From Candidatus Bathyarchaeia archaeon (GTDB lineage Bacteria > Patescibacteriota > Minisyncoccia > Moranbacterales > UBA11712), in NCBI GenBank assembly GCA_035297345.1, contig DATGZC010000033.1, forward strand, positions 1-40,059: DNA of 40,059 nt, given 5' to 3'. The notes beneath the pieces were generated by a model that saw only the letters and a program-made list of their open reading frames with translations, had not been told where the DNA came from and did no database searches. Below are positions 11,664 to 26,146 of this stretch, piece after piece (the first letter of the stretch is position 1; each line of letters starts with the position of its first letter). Position numbers and translations under genes: made by a program.

Positions 11664-13067
11664 TTATTTTATTTGGATTAAGAATTTTTTGAGGTCTTTT
11701 TTTCCGACAATCATTGGATATTTCAATCCGGTCCGTTTGATAACGTTTGTCTTTGAAATCACCTCCTCGTTATTCATGACAAAACTTATTTTCACTTTCG
11801 GGCGGATCGTCACGCCGCTGGAAGAGTATATAATGACGATATCTTCCAAATCCTCATGGCCTGCCAAATATTTTTTTCTTAGATCTTCCTCAATCTCTTT
11901 TGCCTGTTCGCGGGGGAAATCCGACGGCTTCTCGATTTTTTCAAAATAACTCAGAACATCTTCGAAACCCAGTTCTTTAGCAAGCGACACATCTAGGGAC
12001 GATGATTGTGCTCCTGTGTCTATCTTCGCCTCAACTTCCGTTTCTCTTCCATTTTTTCCAATCAATTTCACTTTCTCGACCGTTCCGATGATTTTCTTTC
12101 CCGAGATGTCCTCGATTTCTTCTTCAATTTCACCTCCAAAAAGGTTCATTCCGACGGCCACGCCTTTTTCGGCGGTTTTTATTTTCAAACCTTCGACGCG
12201 TTGCAAGCGGCCGAGTAAACCATCTAAATTTGCAATCTGGATTGAGAGTCCCGGGCGGGCGTTGAGCTCCAAGAAGACCGGGCCGCGGTCGCGATCGATC
12301 GCAATATCGGCGCCGAGATAGCCGAGTCCCGAAATTTCCTGCGCGCGGACCGCCAGGCTCAAGATTGTTTTCCAATATGGGACGCGGATTCCCGAAAGGA
12401 CAAGCCGGGAGCCCGGAAGATATTCAATGATGGTGTTTTTGTGATAGACGGCCGTGGTCGTCACGCCCGAAGCCATGTCGATTCCCACGCCGACCGCTCC
12501 TTGCTGGAGGTTTGCCTTCCCGTCCGATTCGCGGGTTGGGAGGCGGAGCATTGCCATCACCGGCACCTTATTGTATACGACGATGCGGATGTCCGGGATT
12601 CCTTTGAAAGCGTAGGGCTTGAAGAGCTTCAAGAGTTTCAAGCGCTCTTCAAAAAAAGCGATATCCGGAGTGCCCGAGAGAGAATAGCTTCCGTCGATAA
12701 TGTTCGTGATGTGCGTCTTGATGTCTTCGATCGTGATGAGTGATCCGTCGGCTTTGATCCACGTATTTTCCATATTCTTCTTCTTTCCATAGACGACCAA
12801 AATGCCTTCACCGCCGAATCCGCGGTTCGGTTTCAAGACCCAGGAATCGGGAAGCGCGCTCCAATCGAAATCTTCGAGTTCGTCCAAGTTCTTTATTTTC
12901 GCGACGAGGCTTGGGACGGGCAGATCCGCTTTTTTGAGAAAACGCTTGCTCAAAAGTTTGTCGTCGGCGAGGCGCTTGGCGCGGCGAAGATTGTTGGGAC
13001 GAATAAAAGTCAGATTGCGGGCGTTCATTCCCAAAATTTTTCGGCTGTTTTTGAAGAACGCTATCAT
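11664..13067 (-). CDS. Alpha-L-glutamate ligase-like (RimK-related) ATP-grasp fused to a C-terminal retropepsin-like (putative ATP-dependent zinc protease, RimB-type) domain
   Basis: The start is set at ATG 13067, which overlaps the TGA of the 7TM gene (ATGA). The N-terminus ILGMNARNLTFIRPNNLRRAKRLADDKL.SKRFL is characteristic of this ligase family. VLKPNRGFGGEGI and ELNARPG are also present. The C-terminal part contains AKIDTGAQSSSLD, encoded around 11988-12030. Confidence 0.8.
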   Translation of the reverse strand: MIAFFKNSRKILGMNARNLTFIRPNNLRRAKRLADDKLLSKRFLKKADLPVPSLVAKIKNLDELEDFDWSALPDSWVLKPNRGFGGEGILVVYGKKKNMENTWIKADGSLITIEDIKTHITNIIDGSYSLSGTPDIAFFEERLKLLKLFKPYAFKGIPDIRIVVYNKVPVMAMLRLPTRESDGKANLQQGAVGVGIDMASGVTTTAVYHKNTIIEYLPGSRLVLSGIRVPYWKTILSLAVRAQEISGLGYLGADIAIDRDRGPVFLELNARPGLSIQIANLDGLLGRLQRVEGLKIKTAEKGVAVGMNLFGGEIEEEIEDISGKKIIGTVEKVKLIGKNGRETEVEAKIDTGAQSSSLDVSLAKELGFEDVLSYFEKIEKPSDFPREQAKEIEEDLRKKYLAGHEDLEDIVIIYSSSGVTIRPKVKISFVMNNEEVISKTNVIKRTGLKYPMIVGKKDLKKFLIQIK

Positions 13068-13708
13068 TTGGATTTCAATATTTGACGAAAGCGGAAATAT
13101 TCCGTGAGGCGCAGGCCCGTCCATTTGCCGAGGAAGATGTTGACCGGGATCGTGAGCAGGCTTATCCATGGATAGATCAGCACGACGCTGATTAAGGTCG
13201 GCCAGCTGGCGATATAGTATCCGATGACGGAGATGGCAAGCGTTTCAATGGCAAGGATTACAGCAGTGCGGGCGCCTTTTTCAATTTGGACAGCCACGAA
13301 TTTCTCAACAAGAGTGATCATGATGAGAATCGGAAAAATTGAGACGCTTGCGAGGCCGGTCCGGTTGTATATCCCTCCGACGATAAGAAGGACGAGGATC
13401 GAAAAACCGACGATTGTGATCATGATGGCGACGCGCGGAAGATAGAGCAGGCGGATCTGCTTCAGAAGAAAGCGGACAAAAGTTCCCATCACGATGACGG
13501 TGGCAAAAATGATGATGCCGTATTTGATCTGGTTTGTGGCGAGAAAGGCGAAGGTGATGATCGCGGGGGTGTAGATTCCGAAAGCCTTGATTCCGACCAC
13601 TTGGCGGAAAAAAGCAATGAGGGTCACGATGATCGGCAAAATGAGGACCAGCACGAGAGTGTCGAGCGGCACTCCGTTCGAAAGGGCGAGTTGGGCGAAT
13701 TGGTTCAT
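13064..13708 (-). CDS. 7TM membrane protein (the 7TM module usually fused to an inactive transglutaminase)
   Basis: 214 aa with about 7 hydrophobic helices. FRQVVGIKAFGIYTPAII is typical of that family. It is translationally coupled to the ligase gene. Confidence 0.72.
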   Translation of the reverse strand: MNQFAQLALSNGVPLDTLVLVLILPIIVTLIAFFRQVVGIKAFGIYTPAIITFAFLATNQIKYGIIIFATVIVMGTFVRFLLKQIRLLYLPRVAIMITIVGFSILVLLIVGGIYNRTGLASVSIFPILIMITLVEKFVAVQIEKGARTAVILAIETLAISVIGYYIASWPTLISVVLIYPWISLLTIPVNIFLGKWTGLRLTEYFRFRQILKSK

Positions 13709-13752
13709 TGGGATATTGATTATGAATAAAAAAAGCCCCTCTAGTTGGCTTA

Positions 13753-13781
13753 ATCTTACTTATTTTTTGGGCGTTTGTCAA
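13753..13781 (-). promoter_or_regulatory. Sigma70-like promoter for the 7TM/ligase operon
   Basis: On the minus strand: TTGACA (13781-13776), N17, TAAGAT (13758-13753). Confidence 0.45.
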
Positions 13782-13839
13782 CCCAAAAAGGTTCGAATTT
13801 GTTTTCCAAAGCTTGGCTTTGAGGAATTTTTAATCCCGC

Positions 13840-14352
13840 TCAGCGGGAGAAAAAGGAAAAAGCCGAGCTTTGGGAAAATTTCATCTTGCGTGAATTCAAA
13901 TGGCAGATCGCGATGGCCACGGCATCCGCGGCATCGTCGGGCTTGGGGATGCACTTGAGATTCAAAATATTTTTCACCATCAGCTGAATCTGCTTTTTGT
14001 CGGCCCGGCCATATCCGGTGAGGGCTTGCTTCACCTGAAGCGGCGTATAGCTCTCGATCGGCAGTTTGTTTTTCTTGAGCTCATACAAAACTACCCCGCG
14101 CGCTTGGGCGACGGTGATGGCGGTTTTTTGATTGTTGAAGAAAAACAGATCCTCGATGGCGGCTTCGTCCGGCTTGTATTTTTTGACGAGTGTTTGGATA
14201 TCCCGCCCAATTTCAACCAGCCGTTCCGCATCGGATTTCAATTTCGATGTATTCACGCACCCGCAGGCCACGAGCCGCGGATTTTTTTTGATTTCCTCAA
14301 CCACGGCCCAGCCGGTGGTGGCCGTCCCAGGGTCGATTCCGAGTATTTTCAT
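13840..14352 (-). CDS. ruvC: Crossover junction endodeoxyribonuclease RuvC
   Basis: MKILGIDPGTATTGWAVVE... with DAADAVAIAICH at the C-terminus. It overlaps the yebC stop by 4 nt. Confidence 0.95.
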   Translation of the reverse strand: MKILGIDPGTATTGWAVVEEIKKNPRLVACGCVNTSKLKSDAERLVEIGRDIQTLVKKYKPDEAAIEDLFFFNNQKTAITVAQARGVVLYELKKNKLPIESYTPLQVKQALTGYGRADKKQIQLMVKNILNLKCIPKPDDAADAVAIAICHLNSRKMKFSQSSAFSFFSR

Positions 14353-15065
14353 AAGTTATCATATATCTCCTGCACGTCGTCGAGTTCGTCGAGTTTTTCG
14401 AGAAGTGTTTCGTAGTCTATTTTTGTGTCTTGGTCGATTTCGATCGGGTCGAGGGGATGGAAGATGATGTTGGCGTTGTCGATTTCAACTCCGCTTTTTT
14501 CCAAGGCGTCCTTTACTTTTTTGAGTTCTCTTGGCTCGGTGTATATCTGAAGAAGTTCGGCTTGAAATATGGTATCAATGGCTCCGGCTTCGATCGCTTT
14601 CATCTCAAGATCGTCCGCGTCTTTATCCGTCGTGTCGACATAAATAACACCGACTTGTTTGAAGAGGTGCTTGAAACTTCCGGCCGGGACCATTTTGACG
14701 TTCGTTTTATTGAAAATCGCTTTGAGTTCGGAAACAGTTCGATTCTTATTGTCCGTCGCGGTTTTCACGAGCATTGCGATGTTTCCCGGCGCCAGCGCTT
14801 CGTAGACTATCTCTTCAATTTGGGCGGCGTCCTTGAGCTCGCCCGTGCCGCGCTTCACTGCCCGGTCGATATTGTCTTTCGGCATATTGACGGCCCGCGC
14901 CTGGTCGATCGCGATGCGCAATTTGAAATTCATATCCGGGTTGCCTCCGCCTTCTTTCGCGGCGAGTGTCACGATCCGCGCCACCTTCGTGAAAACCCCG
15001 GCGCGTTTCGCGTCAGCCAATCCTTTTTTGTGTTTTATCCCCGCCCAATGTGAGTGTCCTGACAT
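14349..15065 (-). CDS. yebC: YebC/PmpR family transcriptional regulator
   Basis: MSGHSHWAGIKHKKG...RAVKRGTG; collinear over the full length. Confidence 0.95.
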   Translation of the reverse strand: MSGHSHWAGIKHKKGLADAKRAGVFTKVARIVTLAAKEGGGNPDMNFKLRIAIDQARAVNMPKDNIDRAVKRGTGELKDAAQIEEIVYEALAPGNIAMLVKTATDNKNRTVSELKAIFNKTNVKMVPAGSFKHLFKQVGVIYVDTTDKDADDLEMKAIEAGAIDTIFQAELLQIYTEPRELKKVKDALEKSGVEIDNANIIFHPLDPIEIDQDTKIDYETLLEKLDELDDVQEIYDNL

Positions 15066-15094
15066 AAGATTCAGATTATTACTTGCTAAAATTA

Positions 15095-15123
15095 ATACTA
15101 GCCCGTATCTGGGATTGTTTCAA
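15095..15123 (-). promoter_or_regulatory. Sigma70-like promoter for yebC-ruvC
   Basis: On the minus strand: TTGAAA (15123-15118), N17, TAGTAT (15100-15095). Confidence 0.45.
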
Positions 15124-15137
15124 GATATTCAAATTAA

Positions 15138-15169
15138 AAACAGGCATGCGCAGCTGCGCATGCCTGTTT
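15138..15169. terminator. Perfect 32-bp palindrome that acts as a terminator for the histidine phosphatase gene
   Basis: The palindrome is AAACAGGCATGCGCAG|CTGCGCATGCCTGTTT, with T-runs on both strands. Confidence 0.75.
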
Positions 15170-15188
15170 GGTTTTCGTCAGGTTGAGG

Positions 15189-15725
15189 TTAGGGTCCGAC
15201 GGCGACAAAAGAAATTTCCTGGCCGTTTTGACTCTGCACGAAGTCGACATATTGCAAGGTCTTCAGGCTGTGAGCCCTTCCCCAGCCAAAATAATGAGCA
15301 GCAAGAGAGATTAGTGGATCGTGGCCAACCGCAATGCCATAGCCTCGGTCTTTCATCCGTGAAAACATCCCGATAACCGCTACAGCGGCGGTATATTCCC
15401 ACCCGAGAATAATGTTGTGCGGGAAGACTGAAATGATTGCGTCAAAATTGCTGAGGCCGCTTTCAACCGCTGCGATGAATTCGGGCGTATCGGCCTCTGC
15501 CTCCAATGCCTCCGTCCCGACATCTTCAATGGGTTCGTGAATATGGAGGTTCCAATTCAAGACTTCGGCAAAAGCGAGCAGGGTCTGGGCGGTGCGGATG
15601 AGGGGGCCGTAGAAGCCGTCGGTATAAGGTTCGATGGGCAATTCCCGCTTGGCTCTCTCAAGACCTGCGGGGGTGATAAATTGGCCTTTTTTGTCAGAGT
15701 GACGGAAATACCGCAGTTTTTTCAT
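15189..15725 (-). CDS. Histidine phosphatase (phosphoglycerate mutase-like) family protein
   Basis: RHS motif (YFRHSDKKG) near the N-terminus and a second catalytic His context (AVGHDPLIS). Confidence 0.65.
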   Translation of the reverse strand: MKKLRYFRHSDKKGQFITPAGLERAKRELPIEPYTDGFYGPLIRTAQTLLAFAEVLNWNLHIHEPIEDVGTEALEAEADTPEFIAAVESGLSNFDAIISVFPHNIILGWEYTAAVAVIGMFSRMKDRGYGIAVGHDPLISLAAHYFGWGRAHSLKTLQYVDFVQSQNGQEISFVAVGP

Positions 15726-15874
15726 GTGCTAGCCCTCCTCAGGCTTGATTGTATGTTCGTTGATCAGGCGAATAACACATATTCAACCTAATGGACTAAT
15801 ATAATTCATTCGGAACGAATAGTCAAGTAATGGAAAATTATTGCCTAGTATACTATGCAATATAATTCTAATTA

Positions 15875-15902
15875 TTGACAAACTTAGTCATTATGATAAG
15901 CT
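15875..15902 (+). promoter_or_regulatory. Sigma70-like promoter for the island operon
   Basis: TTGACA (15875-15880), N16, TAAGCT (15897-15902), in a very AT-rich spacer. Confidence 0.4.
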
Positions 15903-15931
15903 ACGGTCACTAATTCAGATAAAGCAATTAT

Positions 15932-17614
15932 ATGATCAAGTTAAAAATGAAGGAATTGGCTAAAAAGTTGAACAAATCAATCTCTGATATATCTCGCGAA
16001 ACGGGGCTCAACCGCAACAGTGTGACAGCTTTATTTCATGGCAAAGTGGACGGAATCAAGTTCGACACTCTTGAAAAAATATGTTCCATCTATGAAGTGA
16101 GTATCAGCGACGTGCTGGAAATCCTCGAAGAAAAAAAGAAAAACAATGAAGAGAAATTATACCGACAAGAGGGCGCCATGGTTCCGTTCACGGGTTGGCC
16201 GCCGTTTTTTGCTCTCAATGATGTGCCAAAAAAGTATTTCGGCGATAATTTTGGAAAAGGCTATTGGTATGGGAAAAAAGATTACATGTATGCCTACTGG
16301 AATTATGATCAAATGAACAAAATTTCAAACTATATGCTCGGAAAATATTATCAGCCGAAGCAAATTGATGGCCTGTTTAAGATTTATTCGGAATATTCAT
16401 TAGACGTCGAAAATATTTATTACAGCTGCAGTGCGAAAAAGATATCCGAAATGGACAGTGAAGAACTGAAATTTTATTTCAACGGGCTCAAGAGCACTCT
16501 TCATAAATTCTGGCAATATTGCATCTTCATTGACGGTTTCGACATAGGGGTCGATTACGAAAAAATCCAAGAAGTGGCCAAAAAATACAAATTAAGCACT
16601 GATGAGATAGGCATTTTGACTACTCCCTATGAAATGACATTTGGAAATGAAAGAAGTTTGACATTGTTTGAGATTATCAAGAAGTTAAAACGAAAAAAAA
16701 TTGATCAAAAAAATATAGATGCTGTTTTAGCTGGATTTATTAAGGACAATCCCATAATCGAAAAATACAAGCTTGATTTCGATTACTATAAATCAAATTA
16801 TGCTCACATAGAACACATCGAAGATGGGGAAATAACAAGAGAGATCAAAAAATATCTGGCCGATCCGGATCTGTTTCAGAAAGAATATGAAAAATTATCT
16901 GACTACGCAAAAAATCAGAAAAAGAAAGTCGCAACAATACTAAAAGCGCATAAGCTGAAGGTCAATCCATTGTATTTTTTTGCCAAGCTCACTTATTGGA
17001 GAGAGCACCGAAAAAAAATAAATCTTATGTCTATTCATGTTCTGAACGCAATCCTCGACTCGCTTGAGATATGGACAGGCATACCAAAAAAATATTTAGG
17101 TTATTTGAGTTTCGATGAGTTTGAAATCACTCTCAAGGGACTGATGAGTATTGATGTTCTGCACAAGAGGCGGGACAAAGGAATGGTCATTATTCTTCCG
17201 GAAGACGGCAGCTACAAGATCCTTGAAGGCCGAGAAGCGCAGTCTTTGAGGGATGAAGTGGAAGAAAAACTTGGAAAAAAAGACAAGGGGCAGGATATTA
17301 TTGCGGGTAAAGTGGCTTCGCAGGGATACGCAAAGGGAACAGCCAGGATCATTGCTGACAGAAAAGACTTCGACAAGTTTCAAGAAGGTGACATTCTGGT
17401 CACGGGGATGACGCGGCCCGAGTTCGTCCCGCTAATGAAAAAAGCGGCGGCTATTGTCACAAATGAGGGCGGAATAACCTGTCACGCAGCCATCGTTTCT
17501 CGAGAGCTTGGGAAACCGTGTATTATTGGAACCAAGTTTGCAACAGAGGTCATTAAAGACGGCGATCTGGTGGAAGTGAGAGCCAATCACGGCACCGTGA
17601 GAATCATTAGATAG
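15932..17614 (+). CDS. XRE-type HTH plus an unassigned ~380-aa central region plus a PEP-utilising-enzyme mobile (swivel phosphohistidine) domain
   Basis: N-terminus: LKMKELAKKLNKSISDISRETGLNRNSVTALFHGK (HTH). C-terminus: GKVASQGYAKGTARII...GDILVTGMTRPEFVPLMKKAAAIVTNEGGITCHAAIVSRELGKPCIIG. The catalytic His codon is at 17483-17485. Confidence 0.8.
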   Translation: MIKLKMKELAKKLNKSISDISRETGLNRNSVTALFHGKVDGIKFDTLEKICSIYEVSISDVLEILEEKKKNNEEKLYRQEGAMVPFTGWPPFFALNDVPKKYFGDNFGKGYWYGKKDYMYAYWNYDQMNKISNYMLGKYYQPKQIDGLFKIYSEYSLDVENIYYSCSAKKISEMDSEELKFYFNGLKSTLHKFWQYCIFIDGFDIGVDYEKIQEVAKKYKLSTDEIGILTTPYEMTFGNERSLTLFEIIKKLKRKKIDQKNIDAVLAGFIKDNPIIEKYKLDFDYYKSNYAHIEHIEDGEITREIKKYLADPDLFQKEYEKLSDYAKNQKKKVATILKAHKLKVNPLYFFAKLTYWREHRKKINLMSIHVLNAILDSLEIWTGIPKKYLGYLSFDEFEITLKGLMSIDVLHKRRDKGMVIILPEDGSYKILEGREAQSLRDEVEEKLGKKDKGQDIIAGKVASQGYAKGTARIIADRKDFDKFQEGDILVTGMTRPEFVPLMKKAAAIVTNEGGITCHAAIVSRELGKPCIIGTKFATEVIKDGDLVEVRANHGTVRIIR

Positions 17615-17625
17615 CAAAAAAATTT

Positions 17626-18219
17626 ATGAAGATCAACGAGCTCCCGGAAAAATACAATAAGCTCTGGAGAAAATGTCAGCCAGTTCTGAAGCAGGGAAGG
17701 CACGGCGATATCGATCACGCCAAGGAAGTGACGGTGCTTGTGCTCAACTATCAAGGAAAACTTGCAATCGACAAAGATGTTCTCGTTCCTGTCGCCATGA
17801 TGCATGATATCGGACATGCGGCTATCTTGCCGGAGCATTTTTTCATGATTACCGGTCCTAAAAAGTTGGTCAATGGGAAATTGGTGCATATGCTGGCGGG
17901 AGCAAAAATTGCAGGGGACTTATTACAATCAGTGAGTTATAATAAGGCTAAGGCGGCCGAAATTGTGGATATAATCTCAATGCATGATTCGGACCAACTC
18001 AAAAACGTGGATATTCAAGAGGTCTACAACACGGTTAACAAAAAGTTTTTTCACGACGTTGATTCACTCGATCGTTATACGAAAAAAAGGCTAGAGAAGG
18101 CTAGGAAAGTCTGGACGAACAAAAAAGAAATCGAGCGGATTCTGAAAAAATTCTTGAATCTTTTTTTCTTTGATGAATTCAGACAAATTGCCGAAAAGAG
18201 AATAGCAGAAATTTTTTAG
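17626..18219 (+). CDS. HD-domain phosphohydrolase
   Basis: H...MMHDIGHA...H...MHDSD...D spacing matches the HD superfamily. It lies 11 nt after the upstream gene. Confidence 0.75.
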   Translation: MKINELPEKYNKLWRKCQPVLKQGRHGDIDHAKEVTVLVLNYQGKLAIDKDVLVPVAMMHDIGHAAILPEHFFMITGPKKLVNGKLVHMLAGAKIAGDLLQSVSYNKAKAAEIVDIISMHDSDQLKNVDIQEVYNTVNKKFFHDVDSLDRYTKKRLEKARKVWTNKKEIERILKKFLNLFFFDEFRQIAEKRIAEIF

Positions 18220-18224
18220 AACCT

Positions 18225-19157
18225 ATGACGAGAGGATTCAAAAATTTATCAATGAAGGATATTTGCCTGGCAGGCGGAAAGGGCGCGTCATTGGGACAAA
18301 TGACGCAACTAAATATCCCCGTTCCGCCGGGCTTTGTTGTCCTGGCGCCAGCTTTTGACCACTTCTTGGAAGAAACAGATCTCAACGTTGAGATCAAGGC
18401 AAGACTTGCGAAAATCAACGTCCAAGATTTGAATTCCGTTGACCGGGCATCAAACGAGATCATGGGCATTATTTACAACGCGAATTTTCCAAAAGATATC
18501 GAGCGGGAAATATTGAAAGAATACAAAAAACTCAAGGCTTCCTTCGTTGCGGTCAGGTCTTCAGCCACAGCCGAAGATTCCTCGGTCGCATCGTGGGCGG
18601 GAGAACTGGAAAGCTATCTCAATACCACAAAAGCGGATCTTCTTGAAAATATAAAAAAGTGCTGGGCTTCCTTGTTCACCCCGCGGGCCATATTTTATCG
18701 CTTTGAGAAAGGTTTGGAAAATGACAAGGTTTCTGTGGCGGTGGTGGTCCAAAAAATGATCCAATCTGAGGTGTCTGGAATATGCTTCACGGTTCACCCC
18801 ATAACCAAAGACAAAAATCAAATGATAATCGAAGCGGGATATGGACTGGGTGAAGCTATCGTTGGCGGGGAAATAACGCCGGATAGCTATGTCGTTGAAA
18901 AGGACACAAAGAATATCTTGGACAAAAATATATCCGAACAAGGGACTATGATTTCCCGGGCAGCCAATGGCAACAAAAAAATCCCAGTTGCAAAAAAAAG
19001 GCGGGGACTTCAGAAATTATCCGACGAAAGAATAAAAGAGCTGGCCGATATATGTTTCATCATCGAGAAAAGTTATAACTATCCTCAAGATATTGAATGG
19101 GCGTTTGAAAAGGGAAAGTTTTTTATCGTGCAATCGAGACCGATAACGACGCTGTGA
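18225..19157 (+). CDS. Stand-alone PEP/pyruvate-binding ATP-grasp module (PPDK_N; N-terminal domain of PEP synthase/RPH type)
   Basis: GGKGASLGQM...IPVPPGFVV...VAVRSSATAEDS...SWAGE...VAVVVQKM...SGICFT.HP...EAGYGLGEAIVGG...DIEWAF..GKFFIVQSRPIT. The protein ends where the next domain would begin in single-chain enzymes. Confidence 0.85.
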   Translation: MTRGFKNLSMKDICLAGGKGASLGQMTQLNIPVPPGFVVLAPAFDHFLEETDLNVEIKARLAKINVQDLNSVDRASNEIMGIIYNANFPKDIEREILKEYKKLKASFVAVRSSATAEDSSVASWAGELESYLNTTKADLLENIKKCWASLFTPRAIFYRFEKGLENDKVSVAVVVQKMIQSEVSGICFTVHPITKDKNQMIIEAGYGLGEAIVGGEITPDSYVVEKDTKNILDKNISEQGTMISRAANGNKKIPVAKKRRGLQKLSDERIKELADICFIIEKSYNYPQDIEWAFEKGKFFIVQSRPITTL

Positions 19158-19183
19158 TCGCGAAATTTTTTTTGGATATAAAA

Positions 19184-19213
19184 AAGGATGGCGAGAGTCA
19201 TCCTTTTGTGTTT
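19184..19213 (+). terminator. Rho-independent terminator of the island operon
   Basis: AAGGATG (19184-19190) pairs with CATCCTT (19199-19205), followed by TTGTGTTT. Confidence 0.55.
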
Positions 19214-19361
19214 GGCATTCTGACTTCCGGCAAATTGTCCCAAATGAGTTCGAAAATCAGCTTCATCGTATTATATATCTCCGTGCTTTCGATGACAAGA
19301 CCCAGCCCCAGCACCAAAAAACTTTGGTGCATGGGTAAAAATCGCTCGGGTTTTTTGTTTT

Positions 19362-19397
19362 CACCTCACCCCAGCCCTCTCCTTATAAAGGAGAGGG
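19362..19397 (+). repeat. Diverged half-copy of the 111-bp element (3' hairpin arm)
   Basis: CACCTCACCCCAGCCCTCTCCTTATAAAGGAGAGGG compares with CACCTCCCCCTGCCCCCTCCTCAACTGAGGAGGGG of the full copies. The hairpin is retained through changes on both arms. Confidence 0.5.
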
Positions 19398-19402
19398 AAT
19401 TT

Positions 19403-19926
19403 TTATTTCTTCTTCCGATCCCGGAAGCCGATGATTTTGGCGGGTTCTTTTCGGTGGACTTCCAGAAGCCTTCGGATTGCGTCAAATACAGCCACAAATC
19501 TTTTGTCATATTTTCTTTCCATCGCCTCTATTTTCAGGCGCAATTGACGATTGCTGATAATCATCTCTCTCAACCTGACAAAAGTTTTTATAATTTGAAT
19601 GTTGACTTGAATGGCACGCTTGCTGTTCAAAACACCTGAAAGCATTGCGACGCCGTACTCAGTGAAAACATATGGCAAATATTTGAATGTCGGCCTTTCT
19701 CTAAGATTCCAATTTGGAATCTTAGAGAACCATATTCTTGCTTGGAAAGCTGAAACATGAATTATTCAGGGAAGCGCTCAGTGTTTCTCTTTACTGCTTT
19801 ATTGAAATTTCCAGTCGTAATTTCATATAAAATGGCCAGATCTCGATCTAGCATAACTTTCTTGCCTCGAATCAAATAAATTTTGTTTTCAATTATTTCT
19901 TGGGGGATCAATGTTGTGTTTTTCAT
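19403..19926 (-). pseudogene. ORF6N (KilA-N-related) domain gene, inactivated
   Basis: The N-terminal part MKNTTLIPQEIIENKIYLIRGKKVMLDRDLAILYEITTGNFNKAVKRNTERFPE ends at an in-frame TAA (19764-19762), where homologues have PEDFMFQL. A 1-nt frameshift in an A-run near 19682-19684 then precedes ...KYLPYVFTEYGVAMLSGVLNSKRAIQVNIQII. Confidence 0.7.
19697..19729. repeat. Perfect 15-bp-stem palindrome inside ORF6N copy 1
   Basis: TTCTCTAAGATTCCA, ATT loop, TGGAATCTTAGAGAA. Confidence 0.9.
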
Positions 19927-19943
19927 CTTTATGTCTTTACTAT

Positions 19944-20264
19944 TTATTTCCTCTTTCGATCCCGGGAGCCGACGATTTTTGCGGGTTCAATGGCGTCTTT
20001 TTCTATGAGGCGCTTGATGGCGTCGAAGACGACTCGGAATCGGCCGTCGTATTTTCGTTCCATTTTCTCGATCTTTTCTCGCAGCGCTTTGTTGCTCACA
20101 ATCATCTCGCGGATCTTTGTGAAAGTGCGCATAATTTGGATGTTCACCCGAATGGCTTGTTTGCTTTTGAGTACCGACGAAAGCATAGCTACGCCTTGTT
20201 CCGTGAAAACGTAGGGCAATTTTCTAGTACCGCCCCAACTTGATGTTCCAAATTGGAACATCAA
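19944..20264 (-). pseudogene. 5'-truncated ORF6N domain gene (C-terminal ~106 codons only)
   Basis: (L)[47 protein letters not shown]... lacks the whole N-terminal DNA-binding half. It begins 6 nt after the stop of the upstream gene. Confidence 0.65.
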
Positions 20265-20265
20265 G
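20239..20265. repeat. Perfect 12-bp-stem palindrome at the truncation point of ORF6N copy 2
   Basis: CTTGATGTTCCA, AAT loop, TGGAACATCAAG. It lies 5 nt downstream (minus strand) of the stop codon at 20271-20273. Confidence 0.9.
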
Positions 20266-20270
20266 GGTTT

Positions 20271-22226
20271 TCAGATCGAAGAAATAAGAAGATAATCCAG
20301 CGATGCGGTAGTATTTTTCAATGGGCAATAGTCTATTTCTTTATTTTGTGATTTCAAGAATCCGATGTCGCTCAAAAAGATGAAAGCGTCTTCAGAAGAG
20401 AAATTTGATTCGTATTGTGCGGAAGCAGCGGTTTCATTTTCGTCGCTGGCGCCGAGAATTTCACCCGTTGCATCTGGATCACTGGCTTCTGCGGCTTCGA
20501 TTTCTCCGGTCGGGTCGTCGATGATTTCAATTTGTTCCTCGGAATCATCGGCGATTTCTTCTGCGCCCGGTGATACCCACTGCCAGTGTCCGCTGATTTT
20601 TACGTAAGCTTCATCGTCGGGGATTTTTTCTTTTGAGTATTCCACTGCGTCCAGCATTTTTCCGTCAGACATCACCAGCTCCACTTTTCCCGCCTTGTTG
20701 TTGAGGGAAAATTTGGAAAATTCGCGGGTGATGGTCTTGGCTTCGTTCGGTCCGAGCGTGAATTCGCCGCTGATTGGGTGATTATACATTTTTTCGCCCG
20801 AGCCGGTCGCGATTTTCCAGCCGTTGAGATCAACTTTTTTCGTTGAATTGTTTTTCACGTCAATAATTTCTCCCTCCGTATCCGCTCCGGCGGGATTGGG
20901 GACAATTTTCACGAGCTCGAGATCGGGCCGGGGACTGTTTTTCACAATGACAGCGAAATTTTTTTCAACTGTTTGCGAATCGTCTGTGACCGCGAGCGTC
21001 ACCGTATATTTTCCCGTGTCGAGATATTTGTGCGAAGTATTTTTTAAATAGCTCTTCTTCCCGTCGCCGAAATCCCAGGTGTATTTCAACTTCTTCGTTT
21101 CTTCGTCTTTGGCTTTGGCGCTAAATTTGGAGAGGATATTTTTGTAGACGTTTTTGGGTTTTTCGATTTTTACGACCGGCTCCGAATCGTACTTGTTTTT
21201 TTCTCCGGGCGTCAGATATTTGCTCCATTTCCAAACTTCCCCGTCGAAATTATATGAAGAGCTATTGATTGATTTTTCCCAAGAAACGCTCGAGGCGGTT
21301 TTGCCTTGCGGGTTGGACAAAGTCACTGATTCTTTGGAGTTGTTTAGCGTTATTTTCGAATCGGGGCGAAAGACCGCCAAGTATTCGCCGGGATTCAGGA
21401 GTGTATGGACCTTGAATTGATAGCCCTTGCCTTTTGAAGCGTCTTTTAGCTTCCAGCCGAACAAGTCAACAGCATCTTCCCCGCCGTTTGCGATCTCGAT
21501 ATATTCTTCATCGGATTCGGTTTTCGGATTGGGGAAGATTTCATTGAGATATATCTTGTCAGAAAGAGAATAGCTGTCATCAGCTGCTGTGCTCGTATTT
21601 CCAACGGGTTTTGATTCTGCGGCAGGTGTATTGTTATTTGCTGCCGGTAGAGTTGGCTCCGGCGGACATTCATTTCCAATTTTTCCCGGCGTTCCACTAG
21701 CCTCGCAGCTTTCCTCCCAGTCGGAACCATTTTCGATTCTTTCCAGGCTATAGTTCTGTTTTGGATCCGGAAGCGGGAAATCGCATTTTGTCGACTTTCC
21801 CCAGCAAATCGAATCGACCACATTCAAATCTTTCGTGGCGGAGGTGCTTATATAAACGGCGCCATTTGAAACCAGGGCTGCTGAATATGTCGCGCCAATG
21901 GCAATCTCGCTATGATTGTTGCGAAAAGAGGCGGAAGCCAGCAAAAGATAGTCCCGCGCTTTGATGATGGAATTCGCTGACGTATAAGTCATGGTTTTTG
22001 AGGTGTCCGCTCCGGTGGAACTGACGATGTGCAATTTTAGCGGCAATGATTTCAAATCGATGTCGGTGGAGGAGGGATTATAGAGCTCGATAAATTCTTC
22101 GTCTGATGAATTTCCGCCGATCAAGACTTCCGAGATTATAAGATGGTCGTCGACGGCCCAGGAGGAATTTGCCAGGAAAAAAAGCACAATGGCTGACAGG
22201 AAGCCCGTAGTGATTGTTTTTTTCAT
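20271..22226 (-). CDS. Secreted lamin-tail-domain (LTD x3) plus PKD-domain protein
   Basis: Signal peptide is present. The three LTD-like segments are IISEVLIGGNSSDEEFIELYNPS, YLNEIFPNPKTESDEEYIEIANGG and IVPNPAGADTEGEIIDVKNNS. The PKD-like segment is YTWDFGDGK...HKYLDTGKYTVTLAVTD. Confidence 0.82.
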   Translation of the reverse strand: MKKTITTGFLSAIVLFFLANSSWAVDDHLIISEVLIGGNSSDEEFIELYNPSSTDIDLKSLPLKLHIVSSTGADTSKTMTYTSANSIIKARDYLLLASASFRNNHSEIAIGATYSAALVSNGAVYISTSATKDLNVVDSICWGKSTKCDFPLPDPKQNYSLERIENGSDWEESCEASGTPGKIGNECPPEPTLPAANNNTPAAESKPVGNTSTAADDSYSLSDKIYLNEIFPNPKTESDEEYIEIANGGEDAVDLFGWKLKDASKGKGYQFKVHTLLNPGEYLAVFRPDSKITLNNSKESVTLSNPQGKTASSVSWEKSINSSSYNFDGEVWKWSKYLTPGEKNKYDSEPVVKIEKPKNVYKNILSKFSAKAKDEETKKLKYTWDFGDGKKSYLKNTSHKYLDTGKYTVTLAVTDDSQTVEKNFAVIVKNSPRPDLELVKIVPNPAGADTEGEIIDVKNNSTKKVDLNGWKIATGSGEKMYNHPISGEFTLGPNEAKTITREFSKFSLNNKAGKVELVMSDGKMLDAVEYSKEKIPDDEAYVKISGHWQWVSPGAEEIADDSEEQIEIIDDPTGEIEAAEASDPDATGEILGASDENETAASAQYESNFSSEDAFIFLSDIGFLKSQNKEIDYCPLKNTTASLDYLLISSI

Positions 22227-22268
22227 AGTTGTTAATATAATATTTAAATTTATTTTTCGATCATAACA

Positions 22269-22300
22269 AAAAAGACCGTAATAAATCCGTATTACGGTCC
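22269..22300 (-). terminator. Rho-independent terminator
   Basis: GACCGTAATA (22275-22284) pairs with TATTACGGTC (22291-22300). The minus-strand T6 corresponds to 22269-22274. Confidence 0.75.
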
Positions 22301-22343
22301 AAAACCCCTAAATTTCCTTAATATATGAGAATTGCAAGAGCCT

Positions 22344-23552
22344 TTATTTGTCCTTGACGCAACGAAAACCGACATCCACGTCCTTATAATCTTTCCGAAA
22401 TCCGCAACGTGTCGCCGCGCGCTGTTCGCTTATGCCGTCGTCATAGGCTCCTCCGCGCAGTGACTTGAAGCCTTTTTCGAAATCTTCCTCGATATACTTG
22501 TCATTTTCCGGGTAGGCGTTGAAATCGTCGGCTGTCCATTCATAAACATTGCCCGCCATATTCAAAATTCCGTACGGGCTCACGCCGAGTTCCGTGCCGA
22601 CGGGGGCCGTATATTTCCAACCGTCTTTTTCGTCATAGCCGTAGCCGCCCGTGCCTTTTCCGTGATTGTCTTTTTTCGGATCCCATATGTTTCCCCAAGG
22701 CCAGTTTCGTCCGTCCGTTCCGCGGGCCGCTTTTTCCCATTCGGCTTCCGTGGGCAATCTCTTGTTCATCCAGCGGCAATAGGCGTCCGCGTCGTTCCAA
22801 TCGACTCCGACCACCGGTTGACTTGGCGCATTGAGCGTGCGGTCGTTCCACAGGGAGGGGGCGGCACGCCCGGTTGCCTCGACGAACATTCGGTAATCTC
22901 CATTCGACGCTTCCTTTTTGTCGATATAATAATCACCGAGCGTGATTTTTCGCCGGGGATATGATGAAATATAGTCCTGCTTCGACCAACCGCCGTCGTT
23001 TTGGCGCCAGGTCTCAAGAATCTCTTCGTCGGTGCTGCCCATGAGAAATTCACCGGCCGGAATCAAAACCATTTCATCTGGCGGCTTGGGAGCGGAGTTC
23101 TGCGGAGTTTCCCGGGCTGAATTTGCCTCGGCCGCTGGGTCAACGGGCCTGTTTTTGCCGCCGAGAGCGAAGATACTGTAGATTATCAGCAATATCACCG
23201 ATGATGAGATGACTATTTTTTCCTTGTTGGAAAATTTTTTCCGCTCTTTTTGGCGCTTCTCGGTTGATACCGGGCCGTCTATTGAATAGATATTGTTTTT
23301 GTAGGCTACGACGTTGCGGCCGATGAGGGAATTTATGCGCCAGCGATATTGCCTTATATGGTCACCCGTGTATTCTTTGGCTCCCGCCGGATCAAAGAAA
23401 TCATTTATGTCAGTCAACGTAATATTTTTCTTGTCGCACAAAAAAACAAGCAAACGATAAGCGTTGCCTGTTAGCGCCAGTTCTTTATCATTTTCATCAA
23501 ATACCTTTTGGCTCGCGGTGTCTAGTTTGAAATATTGATGCTTGAAAGTCAT
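22344..23552 (-). CDS. Membrane-anchored winged-helix (OmpR/CadC/ToxR-type) regulator with extracytoplasmic FGE-sulfatase (SUMF1-like) domain
   Basis: The N-terminus YFKLDTASQKVFDENDKELALTGNAYRLLVFL...IRQYRWRINSLIG is trans_reg_C-like. There is one TM helix (IVISSSVILLIIYSIFALGG). The C-terminus carries GEFLMGS...VVGVDWNDADAYCRWMNKRLPTEAEWEKAARG...GNVYEWT...LRGGAY...GFRCV. Confidence 0.8.
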   Translation of the reverse strand: MTFKHQYFKLDTASQKVFDENDKELALTGNAYRLLVFLCDKKNITLTDINDFFDPAGAKEYTGDHIRQYRWRINSLIGRNVVAYKNNIYSIDGPVSTEKRQKERKKFSNKEKIVISSSVILLIIYSIFALGGKNRPVDPAAEANSARETPQNSAPKPPDEMVLIPAGEFLMGSTDEEILETWRQNDGGWSKQDYISSYPRRKITLGDYYIDKKEASNGDYRMFVEATGRAAPSLWNDRTLNAPSQPVVGVDWNDADAYCRWMNKRLPTEAEWEKAARGTDGRNWPWGNIWDPKKDNHGKGTGGYGYDEKDGWKYTAPVGTELGVSPYGILNMAGNVYEWTADDFNAYPENDKYIEEDFEKGFKSLRGGAYDDGISEQRAATRCGFRKDYKDVDVGFRCVKDK

Positions 23553-23557
23553 TCCCG

Positions 23558-24124
23558 TTATAATTCCCCCCGAATGGCTTGGCCCATTTCAACTTCTTCG
23601 TTTTTGCGTTCTTTTTCCTGAAGCTGGACGATGATGTTTTTCACCTCATTGGGGTTCGGAATCTGATGAAATGTGAAGCGTTCGACTTCGGCCGCCGTTT
23701 GGACATAGATATTCCCATAGCCCAGGACAGTGGGAATGACGCCGATGATTTCGGAAGTTACGTCCTGGATTTTCGTGAGCTTGAGCTCCGAAATATCCCG
23801 GTTAAAAAAGCCTTTTTGATCAATATTGACGATGCGTTCGTTGGTGACGATCCAGGCGTCGAGATAGAAATCGAGCCAGAGGATGAAAAACAAATTCCAG
23901 ACAAAAAGCATTCCGAGACTTTCGGCAAAAAGAAGGAGATTATGGTACGCACTTTGGGAAAAATCGCCGCCGAAAAGAGTGAAAAAGACATAGGCCAAAA
24001 CCAAGCCGAGGATGGCGGCGAGCACCGAAAGCAGATGGATGAAAAAAATATACCAATGGCGGCGCAGAAAAAGAACCACTTGCTCGTCATCATGTTGTCC
24101 TGGAAATCGAATTTCTCCAAACAT
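23558..24124 (-). CDS. Membrane-flanked bacterial PH (bPH_2/YdbT-like) domain protein
   Basis: FPGQHDDEQVVLFLRRHWYIF, two TM helices, then WIVTNERIVNIDQKGFFNRDISELKLTKIQDV. Confidence 0.65.
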   Translation of the reverse strand: MFGEIRFPGQHDDEQVVLFLRRHWYIFFIHLLSVLAAILGLVLAYVFFTLFGGDFSQSAYHNLLLFAESLGMLFVWNLFFILWLDFYLDAWIVTNERIVNIDQKGFFNRDISELKLTKIQDVTSEIIGVIPTVLGYGNIYVQTAAEVERFTFHQIPNPNEVKNIIVQLQEKERKNEEVEMGQAIRGEL

Positions 24125-24148
24125 AATTTTGATTGTTATTTTTCAAAT

Positions 24149-24259
24149 CCTTCTCCCCTCAGATGAGGGGAGATGTCCGAAGGACAGAGGGGTGTTGAGA
24201 GTTCAGCAGACTGAAACAACACCTCCCCCTGCCCCCTCCTCAACTGAGGAGGGGAGGAT
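24149..24259 (+). repeat. 111-bp three-hairpin interspersed repeat, copy A
   Basis: It differs from 31617-31727 at 2 of 111 positions. Hairpins are CTCCCCTCA/TGAGGGGAG, GGTGTTG...CAACACC (with inner TTCAG/CTGAA) and CCCCTCCTCA/TGAGGAGGGG. Confidence 0.92.
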
Positions 24260-24262
24260 TGT

Positions 24263-24484
24263 TTATAACCTAAAACTTCCAAAAATCTGCCCCCAATCCA
24301 CCTGCAGAAATAAAGCAAAATTTGAAATCAAGAGAATTACTGCGCCGAGGATATAGATCACCGACATCACGCCGGAAGCGTGCCGATTGATCTTATAATA
24401 GAGCAAATGAAAAACAATCGCCGCGCCAAAAGCGAGAAAAATGAGGATGACGAAGATATAGAAACCAATGACGATGGATGACAT
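24263..24484 (-). CDS. Small membrane protein (73 aa, 2 TM)
   Basis: Two clear hydrophobic helices, co-directional with its neighbours. No SD sequence seen. Confidence 0.45.
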   Translation of the reverse strand: MSSIVIGFYIFVILIFLAFGAAIVFHLLYYKINRHASGVMSVIYILGAVILLISNFALFLQVDWGQIFGSFRL

Positions 24485-24506
24485 TTTTGTTTTAAATTTT
24501 TTTTGA

Positions 24507-25130
24507 CTAACTTCGCTTATTTTTCATTGTCGCGGCCATGGCGCCCGAGAAGCCTTCTTTCGGGTTTGTTTCTTTCTCTTTTCTTGCTTCCATTGTTCGC
24601 CTCCTAACCGTTGGATGTATTCCAGCGGTCGCGTTGAGAGAGCGATCGGGGGGCGGGGAAGTTTTTTCTGAAGTGGTTCTGTTTATAAAGCCTGGCTTCG
24701 CGAAGGAACAGTCGAAGCTGCTGCCTGGTACGTATTGGTTTGGCGATGCGGATTTTTTCGATCCAGAAGATGGTTGGCCGATGGCTTTTTCTGTATCTGC
24801 AATTTTTGATTGGGAAGAATTTTTCGGCTTGATGAATCTTTGGCCGCTTGAAAGACTTGGAAAGACTTCTTTTGCCAGCCGGAATCGCTCTGCATCGGTG
24901 AGAGTTTTCATTTCGCCGATCGTTGCCTGCATTTCGCCTCTTGAAAGACCATCCTTGGCCTTATTGTACATAATTTGATTGAATTCGACTTTTTCAGACC
25001 GGCTGTTCAGGATATGGGCTATTTTCTTGTTGCTAAGGAAGTCCTGGGTCGCCTTTGACTGGCGAAAATTTTGGCGAAATGACTTGCTTGAAATCTTTTT
25101 GCCGTTGGTAAACAGTTTTTTTGTGTCCAT
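24507..25130 (-). CDS. Hypothetical basic, low-complexity protein (start taken at ATG 25130)
   Basis: It fills the gap downstream of ruvB on the same strand. The tracked start at 25142 is a TTG that overlaps the ruvB stop. No family recognised. Confidence 0.4.
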   Translation of the reverse strand: MDTKKLFTNGKKISSKSFRQNFRQSKATQDFLSNKKIAHILNSRSEKVEFNQIMYNKAKDGLSRGEMQATIGEMKTLTDAERFRLAKEVFPSLSSGQRFIKPKNSSQSKIADTEKAIGQPSSGSKKSASPNQYVPGSSFDCSFAKPGFINRTTSEKTSPPPDRSLNATAGIHPTVRRRTMEARKEKETNPKEGFSGAMAATMKNKRS

Positions 25131-25138
25131 TGGAAAGC

Positions 25139-26146
25139 TCAAAACAACTTATCCTGTTCTTTGTCATACTGCAATCCCAGGTGCCTATAAGCCGCTTCGG
25201 TCGCGACGCGGCCGCGGGGGGTGCGGGTGAGAAAGCCGAGCTGGAGGAGATAGGGTTCATAGACGTCCTCGATAGTTTCTATTTCTTCGGAAGTCGCGGC
25301 GGCGATGGTGGAAATGCCGACCGGTCCGCCGTTGAATTTTTCGATGATGGTCTTCAAGATGTGGCGATCGGTCGGTTCGAGTCCCAGTTCGTCGATTTCG
25401 AGATTGGCAAAGGCGGCGAGGCAGAGTTCTTCGGTGATCGTATCACTATTATTCACTTGCGTGAAGTCGCGGACGCGTTTCAAGAGGCGGTTCGCAACTC
25501 GCGGGGTGCGGCGACTGGATTGGGAAACGGTTTTTGCCCCGGCGCTGTCGATCGGAGCGGAAAGGATCTCGGAAGAGCGGCGTACTATATTTTCAATCTC
25601 TTCGTTTTCATAGAATTCAAGCCGGTTGATGACGCCAAAGCGATTGCGCAGCGGAGAAGAAATTGCCCCCAAGCGCGTAGTAGCTCCTATGAGAGTAAAG
25701 CGGGGGAGATCGAGCTGCAAAGTTTTGGCCGAAGGCCCTTTTCCGATGATGATGTCCAGTTTGAAATCTTCCATAGCCGGATACAAAACTTCTTCGATAA
25801 GTTTGTTGAGGCGGTGAATTTCGTCGATGAAAAGGATGTCGCCGTCGCCGAGATTGGTGAGAATCGACCCCAGGTCGCCGACTTTTTCAATGGCCGGACC
25901 CGAGGTCACGCGGATGTTGGCGCCCATTTCTTTGGCGATGATGTGGGCCAGAGTCGTTTTTCCAAGTCCCGCCGGGCCATAGAGGAGGACATGTTCGATC
26001 GGCTCTTTCCTTTTTTTGGCGGCATCGATCAAAATCCGCAGGTTTTTCTTCGTTTTTTCCTGTCCAAAGTATTCTCCGAAGCTTTGCGGCCGGAGGGTGA
26101 CATCCAGTTTTGTATCGTCAATCTGTTCGTTTGAAGATGTAATCAT
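25139..26146 (-). CDS. ruvB: Holliday junction branch migration helicase RuvB
   Basis: [14 protein letters not shown], Walker [12 protein letters not shown], Walker B LFIDEIH, ATTRLG, and a C-terminal winged helix. Confidence 0.97.

Follow-up and report, generated by a model that had tools for sequence, protein, structure and literature searches.

What is the function of a gene unit in which the ATP-grasp and phosphohistidine domains of a dikinase are carried by separate proteins, one of them fused to a DNA-binding domain, with a hydrolase gene between the two? Such a unit is present at 15932-19157 of contig DATGZC010000033.1 (assembly GCA_035297345.1), whose positions 1 to 40,059, the whole stretch analyzed, are referred to here as the window. 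It consists of three forward-strand genes: g1 (15932-17614; 560 amino acids, aa), which codes for a helix-turn-helix (HTH) domain, a middle domain and a swivel phosphohistidine domain; g2 (17626-18219; 197 aa), which codes for an HD hydrolase; and g3 (18225-19157; 310 aa), which codes for a stand-alone ATP-grasp protein of the PPDK_N family. The gaps between them, 11 nucleotides (nt) from g1 to g2 and 5 nt from g2 to g3, are given by the open reading frame (ORF) list and read directly at the junctions, and they bear out a preliminary description of this DNA made from its letters. With a probability of roughly 0.7, the triad codes for a two-component small-molecule dikinase of the rifampin phosphotransferase (RPH) family, in which the subunit that holds the substrate and carries the phosphate doubles as its own transcription regulator.

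The first line of evidence is the domain structure of the g1 protein. Pfam identifies HTH_26 (residues 5-64, E 1.7e-13) and PEP-utilizers (residues 483-554, E 6.4e-25), with no Pfam match for residues ~70-440. The protein divides into an XRE-type HTH (1-65), a flexible linker (66-72), an RPH-type substrate-binding domain (~73-440) and a swivel phosphohistidine domain (~441-560). The motif GGITCHAAIVSRELGKP is present, and the predicted phosphate-carrying histidine, His518 (codon 17483-17485, forward strand), lies in GGITCHAAI within ~50 residues of the C terminus of the 560-aa protein, its GGITCH being the catalytic loop. The fused DNA-binding domain, the C-terminal swivel and the position of the histidine codon are thus as the preliminary description gave them. 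The middle region, which it had left unassigned, was addressed with the structure search that it proposed. An AlphaFold2 model of g1, built on an alignment of 29 homologues (A1), has a mean predicted local distance difference test score (pLDDT) of 91.3 and a predicted template modeling score (pTM) of 0.82, with disorder confined to linker residues 66-72. The top Foldseek matches of this model in the PDB are structures of the Listeria enzyme RPH-Lm (5FBU, 5FBT, 5FBS and 5HV1), with E values of 1.5e-12 to 2.8e-11, ~580 aligned columns, template modeling (TM) scores of 0.46-0.51 and 16-18% identity; pyruvate phosphate dikinase (PPDK), pyruvate kinase and enzyme I rank after RPH and match the g1 swivel domain only. 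Residues ~73-440 are accordingly modeled with the fold of the RPH rifampin-binding domain. Searched alone, the middle domain matches only 168 clusters among 1.84 billion representatives, so that it appears confined to this group at single-sequence sensitivity. The whole protein has 235 homologues, most of them ~560 aa long with HTH and swivel, and the named ones are labelled Patescibacteria; the HTH fusion in g1 represents a conserved family.

A second, putative catalytic feature is located within the middle domain. Residues W356-R357-E358-H359-R360-K361 (WREHRK; codons 16997-17014, forward strand) form a putative second phosphotransfer site 161 residues ahead of His518, and R357, E358, R360 and K361 are invariant in alignment A1. 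RPH-Lm contains Arg666-Glu667-x-x-Lys670 159 residues ahead of His825, and substitution of either Arg666 or Glu667 by alanine abolishes rifampin phosphorylation while the ATP half-reaction is kept (PMC4844700).

The g3 protein supplies the domain that g1 lacks. Residues 15-309 match PPDK_N over profile positions 3-311 of 328 (E 1.1e-101), and PDB sequence matches include phosphoenolpyruvate (PEP) synthase 8a8e (6.3e-72), the RPH ATP-grasp fragment 5hv6 (3e-57) and 9goj (1.9e-52), the last a stand-alone 387-aa chain in the PDB. The protein ends at ...VQSRPITTL, and in the alignment with PEP synthase 8a8e the same point runs straight into the linker before the swivel domain. The assignment of g3 as a free-standing ATP-grasp module, and with it the division of the enzyme between two proteins, one with the substrate and swivel-His domains and the other with the ATP-grasp, is therefore supported. 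A decayed ppsA fragment, the alternative origin that the preliminary description had raised for g3, is ruled out because stand-alone orthologues (281-380 aa, 36-65% identity) are conserved in ~20 other related loci.

The same components recur in larger assemblies. When alignment A1 was run against 185,579 species genomes, 573 relatives were returned; the best 78 loci, which were examined, belong to Patescibacteria and DPANN archaea, some of the records being titled 'uncultured Gammaproteobacteria' or 'Methanosarcinales'. With those fetched by protein identity, the survey of gene arrays comprised 85 loci (numbered with an L prefix). These contain 319 swivel ORFs with a median length of 486 aa, the swivel being C-terminal in 315 of the 319; among them the catalytic motif most often reads GG[ILVM]T[CS]H, and its histidine is retained in nearly all. 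Arrays, of which L082-L086 and L088 are examples, hold 5-10 swivel genes on the same strand, usually with one ATP-grasp gene, whose place varies between the two ends and the middle of the array, and often with a single HD gene of the g2 type; HAD and His_Phos_1 phosphatases recur in them, and LMWPc occurs in one case. Clustering of the 296 substrate domains at ≥35% identity gives 171 clusters, with paralogues of a single array in different clusters, and a [RQK][ED]xRK motif stands at the RPH-equivalent distance from the histidine in 152 of 254 array paralogues. In CAVZGV010000004.1 (~205.2-223.1 kb; L003 5995-13662 together with L019 1-11773), one array of ~18 kb contains an HTH gene, eight further swivel genes, an HD gene, two His_Phos-like genes and one ATP-grasp gene. 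The ATP-grasp and one swivel module are fused in proteins of 673-796 aa (L086, L006, L073), a 2265-aa ORF (L069 4567-11364) combines one PPDK_N with four swivels and is directly followed by an HD gene, and a 3761-aa ORF (L071 1432-12717; Woesearchaeota JAFGGS010000004.1) combines one PPDK_N with eight PEP-utilizers domains. These natural fusions tie the ATP-grasp and swivel modules together and so argue that they are partners. The triad is the minimal form of these Patescibacteria and DPANN arrays. An artefact of an alternative genetic code was considered for the giant ORFs and ruled out, none of the three stop codons occurring inside them.

Two further observations concern genes at the surveyed loci. 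PTA_PTB (E 1e-90), hexapeptide-repeat transferases and TrmB regulators adjoin swivel arrays, mostly in DPANN (L010, L016, L018, L020, L026, L033, L039, L041, L045, L053, L059, L063 and L068); the PTA_PTB neighbors hint at acyl-phosphate chemistry, such as carboxylate or lipid activation, a lead of low weight. A 422-aa protein at L087 19799-21067 has a GHKL/MORC-type HATPase_c fused to a PEP-utilizers swivel, possibly a different way of charging a phospho-His carrier.

The g2 protein was called an HD hydrolase in the preliminary description, and its assignment holds: Pfam HD is matched at E 1.6e-4, barely over the cutoff, and the family, with 227 homologues of ~200 aa at 50-72% identity, has the invariant residues H31, H60-D61, H64, H71, H88, H120-D121, D123, H143-D144 and D146. 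The model is all-helical (pLDDT 92.7). Searches of PDB sequences with the family profile gave spurious urease matches only, and neither these nor Foldseek returned a specific HD subfamily. The conserved residues identify g2 as a predicted metal-dependent phosphohydrolase of the HD type that belongs to a tight family in Patescibacteria. It is also a genuine, conserved member of the unit, as the preliminary description had assumed in including it: all four g2 homologues sampled independently of g1 are located inside swivel-gene arrays (L082-L085). Array proteins show 50-57% identity to their window counterparts for HD, 52-65% for ATP-grasp and 45-69% for swivel, compared with just 20-43% for the substrate domains. 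Because HD is single-copy in arrays and conserved like the ATP-grasp and swivel, far above the substrate domains, it more plausibly acts on something common to all modules; a phospho- or pyrophospho-His carrier, or a nucleotide product, is favored as its target over any one variable product.

Evidence for regulation is found in the region upstream of g1. A 20-nt near-palindrome, TTGCCTAGTATACTATGCAA (15841-15860), is centered between two divergent -35 hexamers. Its palindromic core, CTAGTATACTAT, occupies 15845-15856, and the core TAGTATACTA occurs once in the window, compared with 0.04 expected occurrences. The same motif is present 74-89 nt ahead of the start codons of HTH-X-swivel genes, the type to which g1 belongs, at L003, L005, L006, L012, L079, L081 and L084; L014 and L084 have a second copy at -26, past the promoter and ahead of the start codon, and L008 and L009 have a similar downstream palindrome. 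The position of the palindrome is fixed across HTH-X-swivel proteins of 34-80% identity, which is persuasive. The g1 protein thus exhibits both features of an XRE autoregulator, a Cro/C1-type HTH and a candidate palindromic operator in its own promoter, and the palindrome is a putative autoregulatory operator of g1. A promoter for g1-g2-g3 is predicted at 15875-15902 on the forward strand (-35 TTGACA at 15875-15880, a 16-nt spacer and -10 TAAGCT at 15897-15902) by homology with L079, where TTGACA, 16 nt and TATATT occur at the homologous position. On the reverse strand, a promoter-like site for the divergent gene (15798-15826; TTGACT at 15826-15821, 17 nt, TATATT) agrees with the consensus at 10 of 12 positions, and is a consensus match only. 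The Rfam scan of the window returned no RNA family, and hence no riboswitch ahead of the operon. The g1 and g3 genes share a strand with g2 alone between them, and inside the operon nothing convincing resembles a terminator, only weak intragenic hairpin matches being found. A terminator-like hairpin followed by a T-run (19375-19397, forward strand; 10-bp stem with 6 GC pairs; consensus match only) sits ~220 nt past the g3 stop codon and is the probable end of the operon.

The divergent gene (15189-15725, reverse strand) codes for a 178-aa protein that is probably a His_Phos_1-like member of the histidine-phosphatase superfamily. Its family alignment (A3) has the invariants R7-H8, T44, Q46-T47 and G133-H134, which compose an RH...RTxQT...GH signature; Pfam His_Phos_1 matches five of nine family members (best E 2.6e-8), the window copy itself being unmatched. 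Relatives adjoin swivel arrays at L079, L019, L043, L083 and L085, and at L008, L014 and L084 the HTH gene is preceded by a distant relative in divergent orientation. The 178-aa gene is likely a fourth member of the unit. Between it and yebC, a perfect hairpin at 15138-15169 (14-bp stem, 8 GC pairs, T-runs on both strands) looks like a bidirectional terminator.

These elements suggest the following mechanism, in which the chemical steps are drawn by homology to RPH, PpsAB and HpeHI. In PpsAB and RPH, phosphotransfer proceeds through a pyrophosphoryl-His intermediate with release of AMP and inorganic phosphate (Pi). In the triad, g3 would bind ATP, and His518 of the g1 swivel would accept the β-phosphate through the same kind of pyrophosphoryl-His, with AMP and Pi leaving. 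The swivel domain would then swing to the RPH-like substrate domain of g1 itself, where R357, E358 and K361 may position the phospho-His for transfer of the phosphate to the hydroxyl of a small molecule. The XRE HTH of g1, probably as a dimer, would bind the palindrome between the operon promoter and that of the 178-aa gene, and operon expression may follow ligand occupancy, the phosphorylation state of g1, or both, in the manner of a 'trigger enzyme'. The g2 protein and the 178-aa protein would serve as partner phosphohydrolases.

Several points weigh against this reading. The g1 middle domain resembles RPH at the level of fold only (16-18% identity, TM ~0.5); a single-sequence search of the PDB with this domain returned no relative, RPH emerging by structure search alone. 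The proposed correspondence of R357, E358 and K361 to Arg666, Glu667 and Lys670 of RPH is drawn from the motif and its spacing. Foldseek matches of g2 in the PDB are weak and generic for the HD fold (HDDC2, YGK1, PgpH and YfbR; best E 0.03, TM 0.54), which leaves its target a guess. On the regulatory side, the -10 element TAAGCT is weak and falls below detection by the promoter scanner. With up to two mismatches, CTAGTATACTAG has 27 matches in 1.055 Mb of fetched loci, 11 of them in the 2.25 kb of sequence just upstream of HTH-X-swivel genes, and the p-value of this enrichment is inflated, the operator consensus having been drawn from the same upstream regions. Finally, pairing in cis is not obligatory, as the g1 homologues at L005 and L087 have no ATP-grasp gene within 6-10 kb, and although no further swivel, HD or ATP-grasp copies were found in the 40-kb window, other swivel genes may exist elsewhere in the genome.

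The alternative that survives best, though still rather unlikely, is that g1 is mainly a phosphorylation-controlled transcription factor, its RPH-like and swivel domains sensing ligand and phosphate, with g3 as its kinase and the HD protein, the His_Phos protein or both resetting the switch; it would then be an ATP-grasp-to-His phosphoswitch acting on a one-component regulator. The HTH and the conserved operator motif fit this idea, as do the two phosphohydrolases that accompany the unit, and the 178-aa protein is near the size of SixA, a phosphohistidine phosphatase. The family can also evidently act in pure regulation: HTH-X-swivel paralogues that head arrays (L008 1234-2901, L009 6001-7668, L014 5191-6876 and L084 4925-6610) have lost both the GGxTxH loop and WRExRK, and in L014 and L084 the catalytic histidine is replaced by serine. 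They look like pseudoenzyme regulators derived from an enzyme form. However, the same loss argues for catalysis in the window. Because the two motifs disappear together, they probably serve one function, and since g1 and its close relatives retain both GGITCH and WREHRK, this coordinated loss and retention suggests that window g1 has remained an enzyme, the paralogues heading arrays having become pure regulators. Moreover, g1 is the sole possible partner of g3 in the visible 40 kb. The phosphoswitch idea is compatible with a regulated dikinase, and the two are not exclusive.

It is very unlikely that the locus is a split rifamycin phosphotransferase, or another kinase that inactivates an antibiotic or toxin, carried as resistance cargo. 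The preliminary description had allowed that a match of the middle region to the rifampin-binding domain would reduce the locus to a split rph. The match in fold was indeed found, RPH-Lm being the best structural match, an R-E-x-x-K motif like the catalytic one of RPH is conserved, and Candidate Phyla Radiation (CPR) resistome surveys count rph-like genes (PMC8651080). However, an identity to RPH of only 16-18% accompanies that fold, and nothing points to rifampin. The NCBIfam equivalog cutoffs for RPH are far from reached: NF041857 gives 75 bits for g1 and 275 for g3 against 999, and NF000283 gives 61 and 186 against 1700. The substrates of known two-component members are phenolic catabolites and not antibiotics (PMC12167813). 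The locus is chromosomal and syntenic, and 5-10 paralogues per related genome with 171 substrate-domain clusters misfit a single drug target.

Anti-phage defense or mobile-element cargo, the other role that the preliminary description proposed for what it took to be an AT-rich island, is most improbable. Part of that picture stands: GC content is 39.3% in g1, 41.2% in g2 and 44.1% in g3, compared with 50-52% in neighboring genes, ORF6N fragments lie immediately downstream, and the combination of kinase, hydrolase and HTH superficially resembles defense operons. The ORF6N sequences, two tandem partial paralogous remnants on the reverse strand (19403-19678 with 19762-19926, and 19944-20264), fill a 1.1-kb stretch (19158-20270). 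Comparison with L079, whose g1 is 79% identical, counts against the remainder. In L079 the same triad occupies the same place in the chromosome, the locus being colinear with window 12167-25414 at 73-79% nucleotide identity, and the flanking genes are shared, with RuvC, YebC and the 178-aa gene to one side and an LTD/PKD protein to the other. The triad neighborhood is therefore conserved, as the preliminary description's proposed check asked. The ORF6N stretch is missing from L079, and it is thus a separate insertion unrelated to the triad; low triad GC is common to both, and is thus old or intrinsic. In PADLOC-DB 2.0, g2 and g3 are unmatched and g1 has just a non-significant HTH match (E 0.047), so that no PADLOC model matches the three proteins; the PHROGs and PADLOC scans together gave nothing past generic HTH and kinase matches. 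Among 2.9 million viral contigs there were swivel-domain matches only, and the g1-type protein was not found. Relatives sit amid ribosomal, tRNA-synthetase and gyrase genes.

That the triad is a true PEP synthase (pyruvate, water dikinase), only split, and serves gluconeogenesis is effectively refuted: both g3 and the g1 swivel find their best sequence matches in NCBIfam and the PDB among PEP synthases, but on the 798-position NCBIfam model these cover only 9-337 (g3, 342 bits) and 341-460 (g1 swivel, 144 bits) against a cutoff of 598 bits, the middle domain is modeled with an RPH fold, and no PEP/pyruvate-binding TIM barrel was found in any triad protein with Pfam or NCBIfam.

Other features of the window accompany the triad. 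Beyond the ORF6N stretch, a 651-aa protein that combines a PKD domain with three lamin-tail domains (20271-22226, reverse strand) keeps its position in L079, where it has 792 aa. On the other side (11664-13708, reverse strand), a 501-aa ATPgrasp_ST protein with a C-terminal RimB/Zn-protease-like domain overlaps a 214-aa 7TM_transglut membrane protein; the two are kept in L079 and appear to be a separate conserved gene pair. The contig, labelled 'Candidatus Bathyarchaeia archaeon' by NCBI, bears promoter motifs of the sigma-70 type as well as bacterial RuvC and YebC (14349-15065). The named relatives of this YebC, at 70-91% identity, are Candidatus Moranbacteria or Parcubacteria, and the contig is probably mis-binned.

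Taken with the arrays, the triad can tentatively be placed in a wider scheme, which we hold to be possible though doubtful. It would be the minimal, still catalytic version of a 'dikinase battery' distributed across Patescibacteria and DPANN, in which one ATP-grasp charges many divergent phosphocarrier/substrate modules, an HD protein services the phospho-His carrier, and an enzyme-derived HTH protein regulates the whole; such a battery would serve to capture, activate or detoxify a panel of small molecules from the host by phosphorylating them. If true, it would represent a significant and so far unrecognised metabolism of reduced-genome symbionts. These very small genomes, from which most biosynthesis is gone, nevertheless devote up to ~18 kb to arrays, together with phosphatases of several superfamilies. 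Many array genes are annotated 'phosphoenolpyruvate synthase' or 'PEP-utilizing enzyme', which could mislead reconstructions of gluconeogenesis. The triad itself is a modest variant that opens onto a large unexplored CPR/DPANN system, and it is the simplest tractable version of it, with one substrate module, one ATP-grasp, one HD protein and a defined operator. No description of CPR/DPANN dikinase arrays was found in the open-access literature searched, an absence that is no proof of novelty.

How, then, does the triad compare with known dikinases? PEP synthase and PPDK have the ATP-grasp and swivel domains closest in sequence to those of g3 and g1, and share the GGxTxH loop with its Thr. They differ in domain order and in their PEP/pyruvate TIM barrel, in place of which the triad has an RPH-like domain. 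The preliminary description erred in assigning these enzymes the order ATP-grasp, substrate domain, swivel His: their order is ATP-grasp, swivel His, PEP/pyruvate domain, and only RPH has the substrate domain in the middle. RPH (RPH-Lm 5FBS/5FBT/5FBU; PMC4844700) resembles g1 and g3 together in its ATP-grasp, helical substrate domain and C-terminal swivel His, with R-E-x-x-K ~160 residues ahead of the catalytic histidine, and it is the best structural match. Unlike the triad enzyme, which is split, RPH is a single chain of ~865 aa, and it has neither the HTH nor the HD partner.

The closest counterparts are the two-component dikinases HpeHI (Rhodococcus), CreHI (Corynebacterium) and phenylphosphate synthase PpsAB(C) (Thauera) (PMC12167813). 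HpeI is an ATP-grasp protein homologous to that of RPH, and HpeH has rifampin-binding-like and swivel domains like those of RPH; substitution of the catalytic histidine kills activity, and HpeH alone moves phosphate between substrates (Dexter et al., J Biol Chem 2025, PMC12167813). The separate ATP-grasp subunit (HpeI, PpsB) corresponds to g3, and HpeH and PpsA correspond to g1 residues 73-560, a C-terminal swivel with GGxT(S/C)H following a substrate domain of the RPH type in each; the PEP/pyruvate TIM barrel is absent from both the known pairs and the triad. Their gene order, as implied by the subunit names, also places the substrate/His gene first and the ATP-grasp gene second (PMC12167813), so the reversed order that the preliminary description presented as a permutation is the established one. 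By domain content, gene arrangement and the GGITCH loop, g1 and g3 qualify as a two-component dikinase of the PpsAB/CreHI/HpeHI kind, and the split was already known. The preliminary description, which knew of no system with such an architecture, is right only in part: the HTH fusion and the HD partner are undescribed in the literature searched, and no N-terminal HTH is mentioned for HpeHI, CreHI or PpsAB (PMC12167813).

Further differences lie in the partners and the setting. The additional small gene of the triad, g2, which codes for an HD hydrolase, is loosely paralleled by PpsC, a small stimulatory third subunit of PpsAB that is a CBS-domain protein. The Hpe pathway uses a separate phosphatase at a later step. 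The known pairs are located in aromatic-catabolism clusters of free-living bacteria, one pair per pathway, whereas the CPR genome with the triad is Moranbacteria-like and has no catabolic genes near the locus, and the arrays combine one ATP-grasp with many paralogous partners. Two other systems offer analogies. BirA, PutA and NadR are enzyme-repressor fusions, or 'trigger enzymes', and resemble g1 in that a DNA-binding domain is fused to an enzyme whose catalytic state or substrate may control its own operon; their enzyme class is unrelated to that of g1, for which DNA binding is suggested by the HTH and the conserved palindrome. In the FakA/FakB fatty-acid kinase, one nucleotide-binding component serves several interchangeable substrate-binding partners by direct transfer of the γ-phosphate, with no phospho-His carrier; its likeness to the arrays is one of function only, with no homology and a different chemistry. 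Relative to all of these, three features are apparently new as far as the searchable literature shows: the fused HTH together with its candidate operator, the HD partner dedicated to the unit, and the arrays that combine one ATP-grasp with many modules. A recently identified two-component dikinase subfamily known only from aromatic catabolism is thereby extended by an enzyme-repressor fusion, an HD partner and a one-to-many arrangement.

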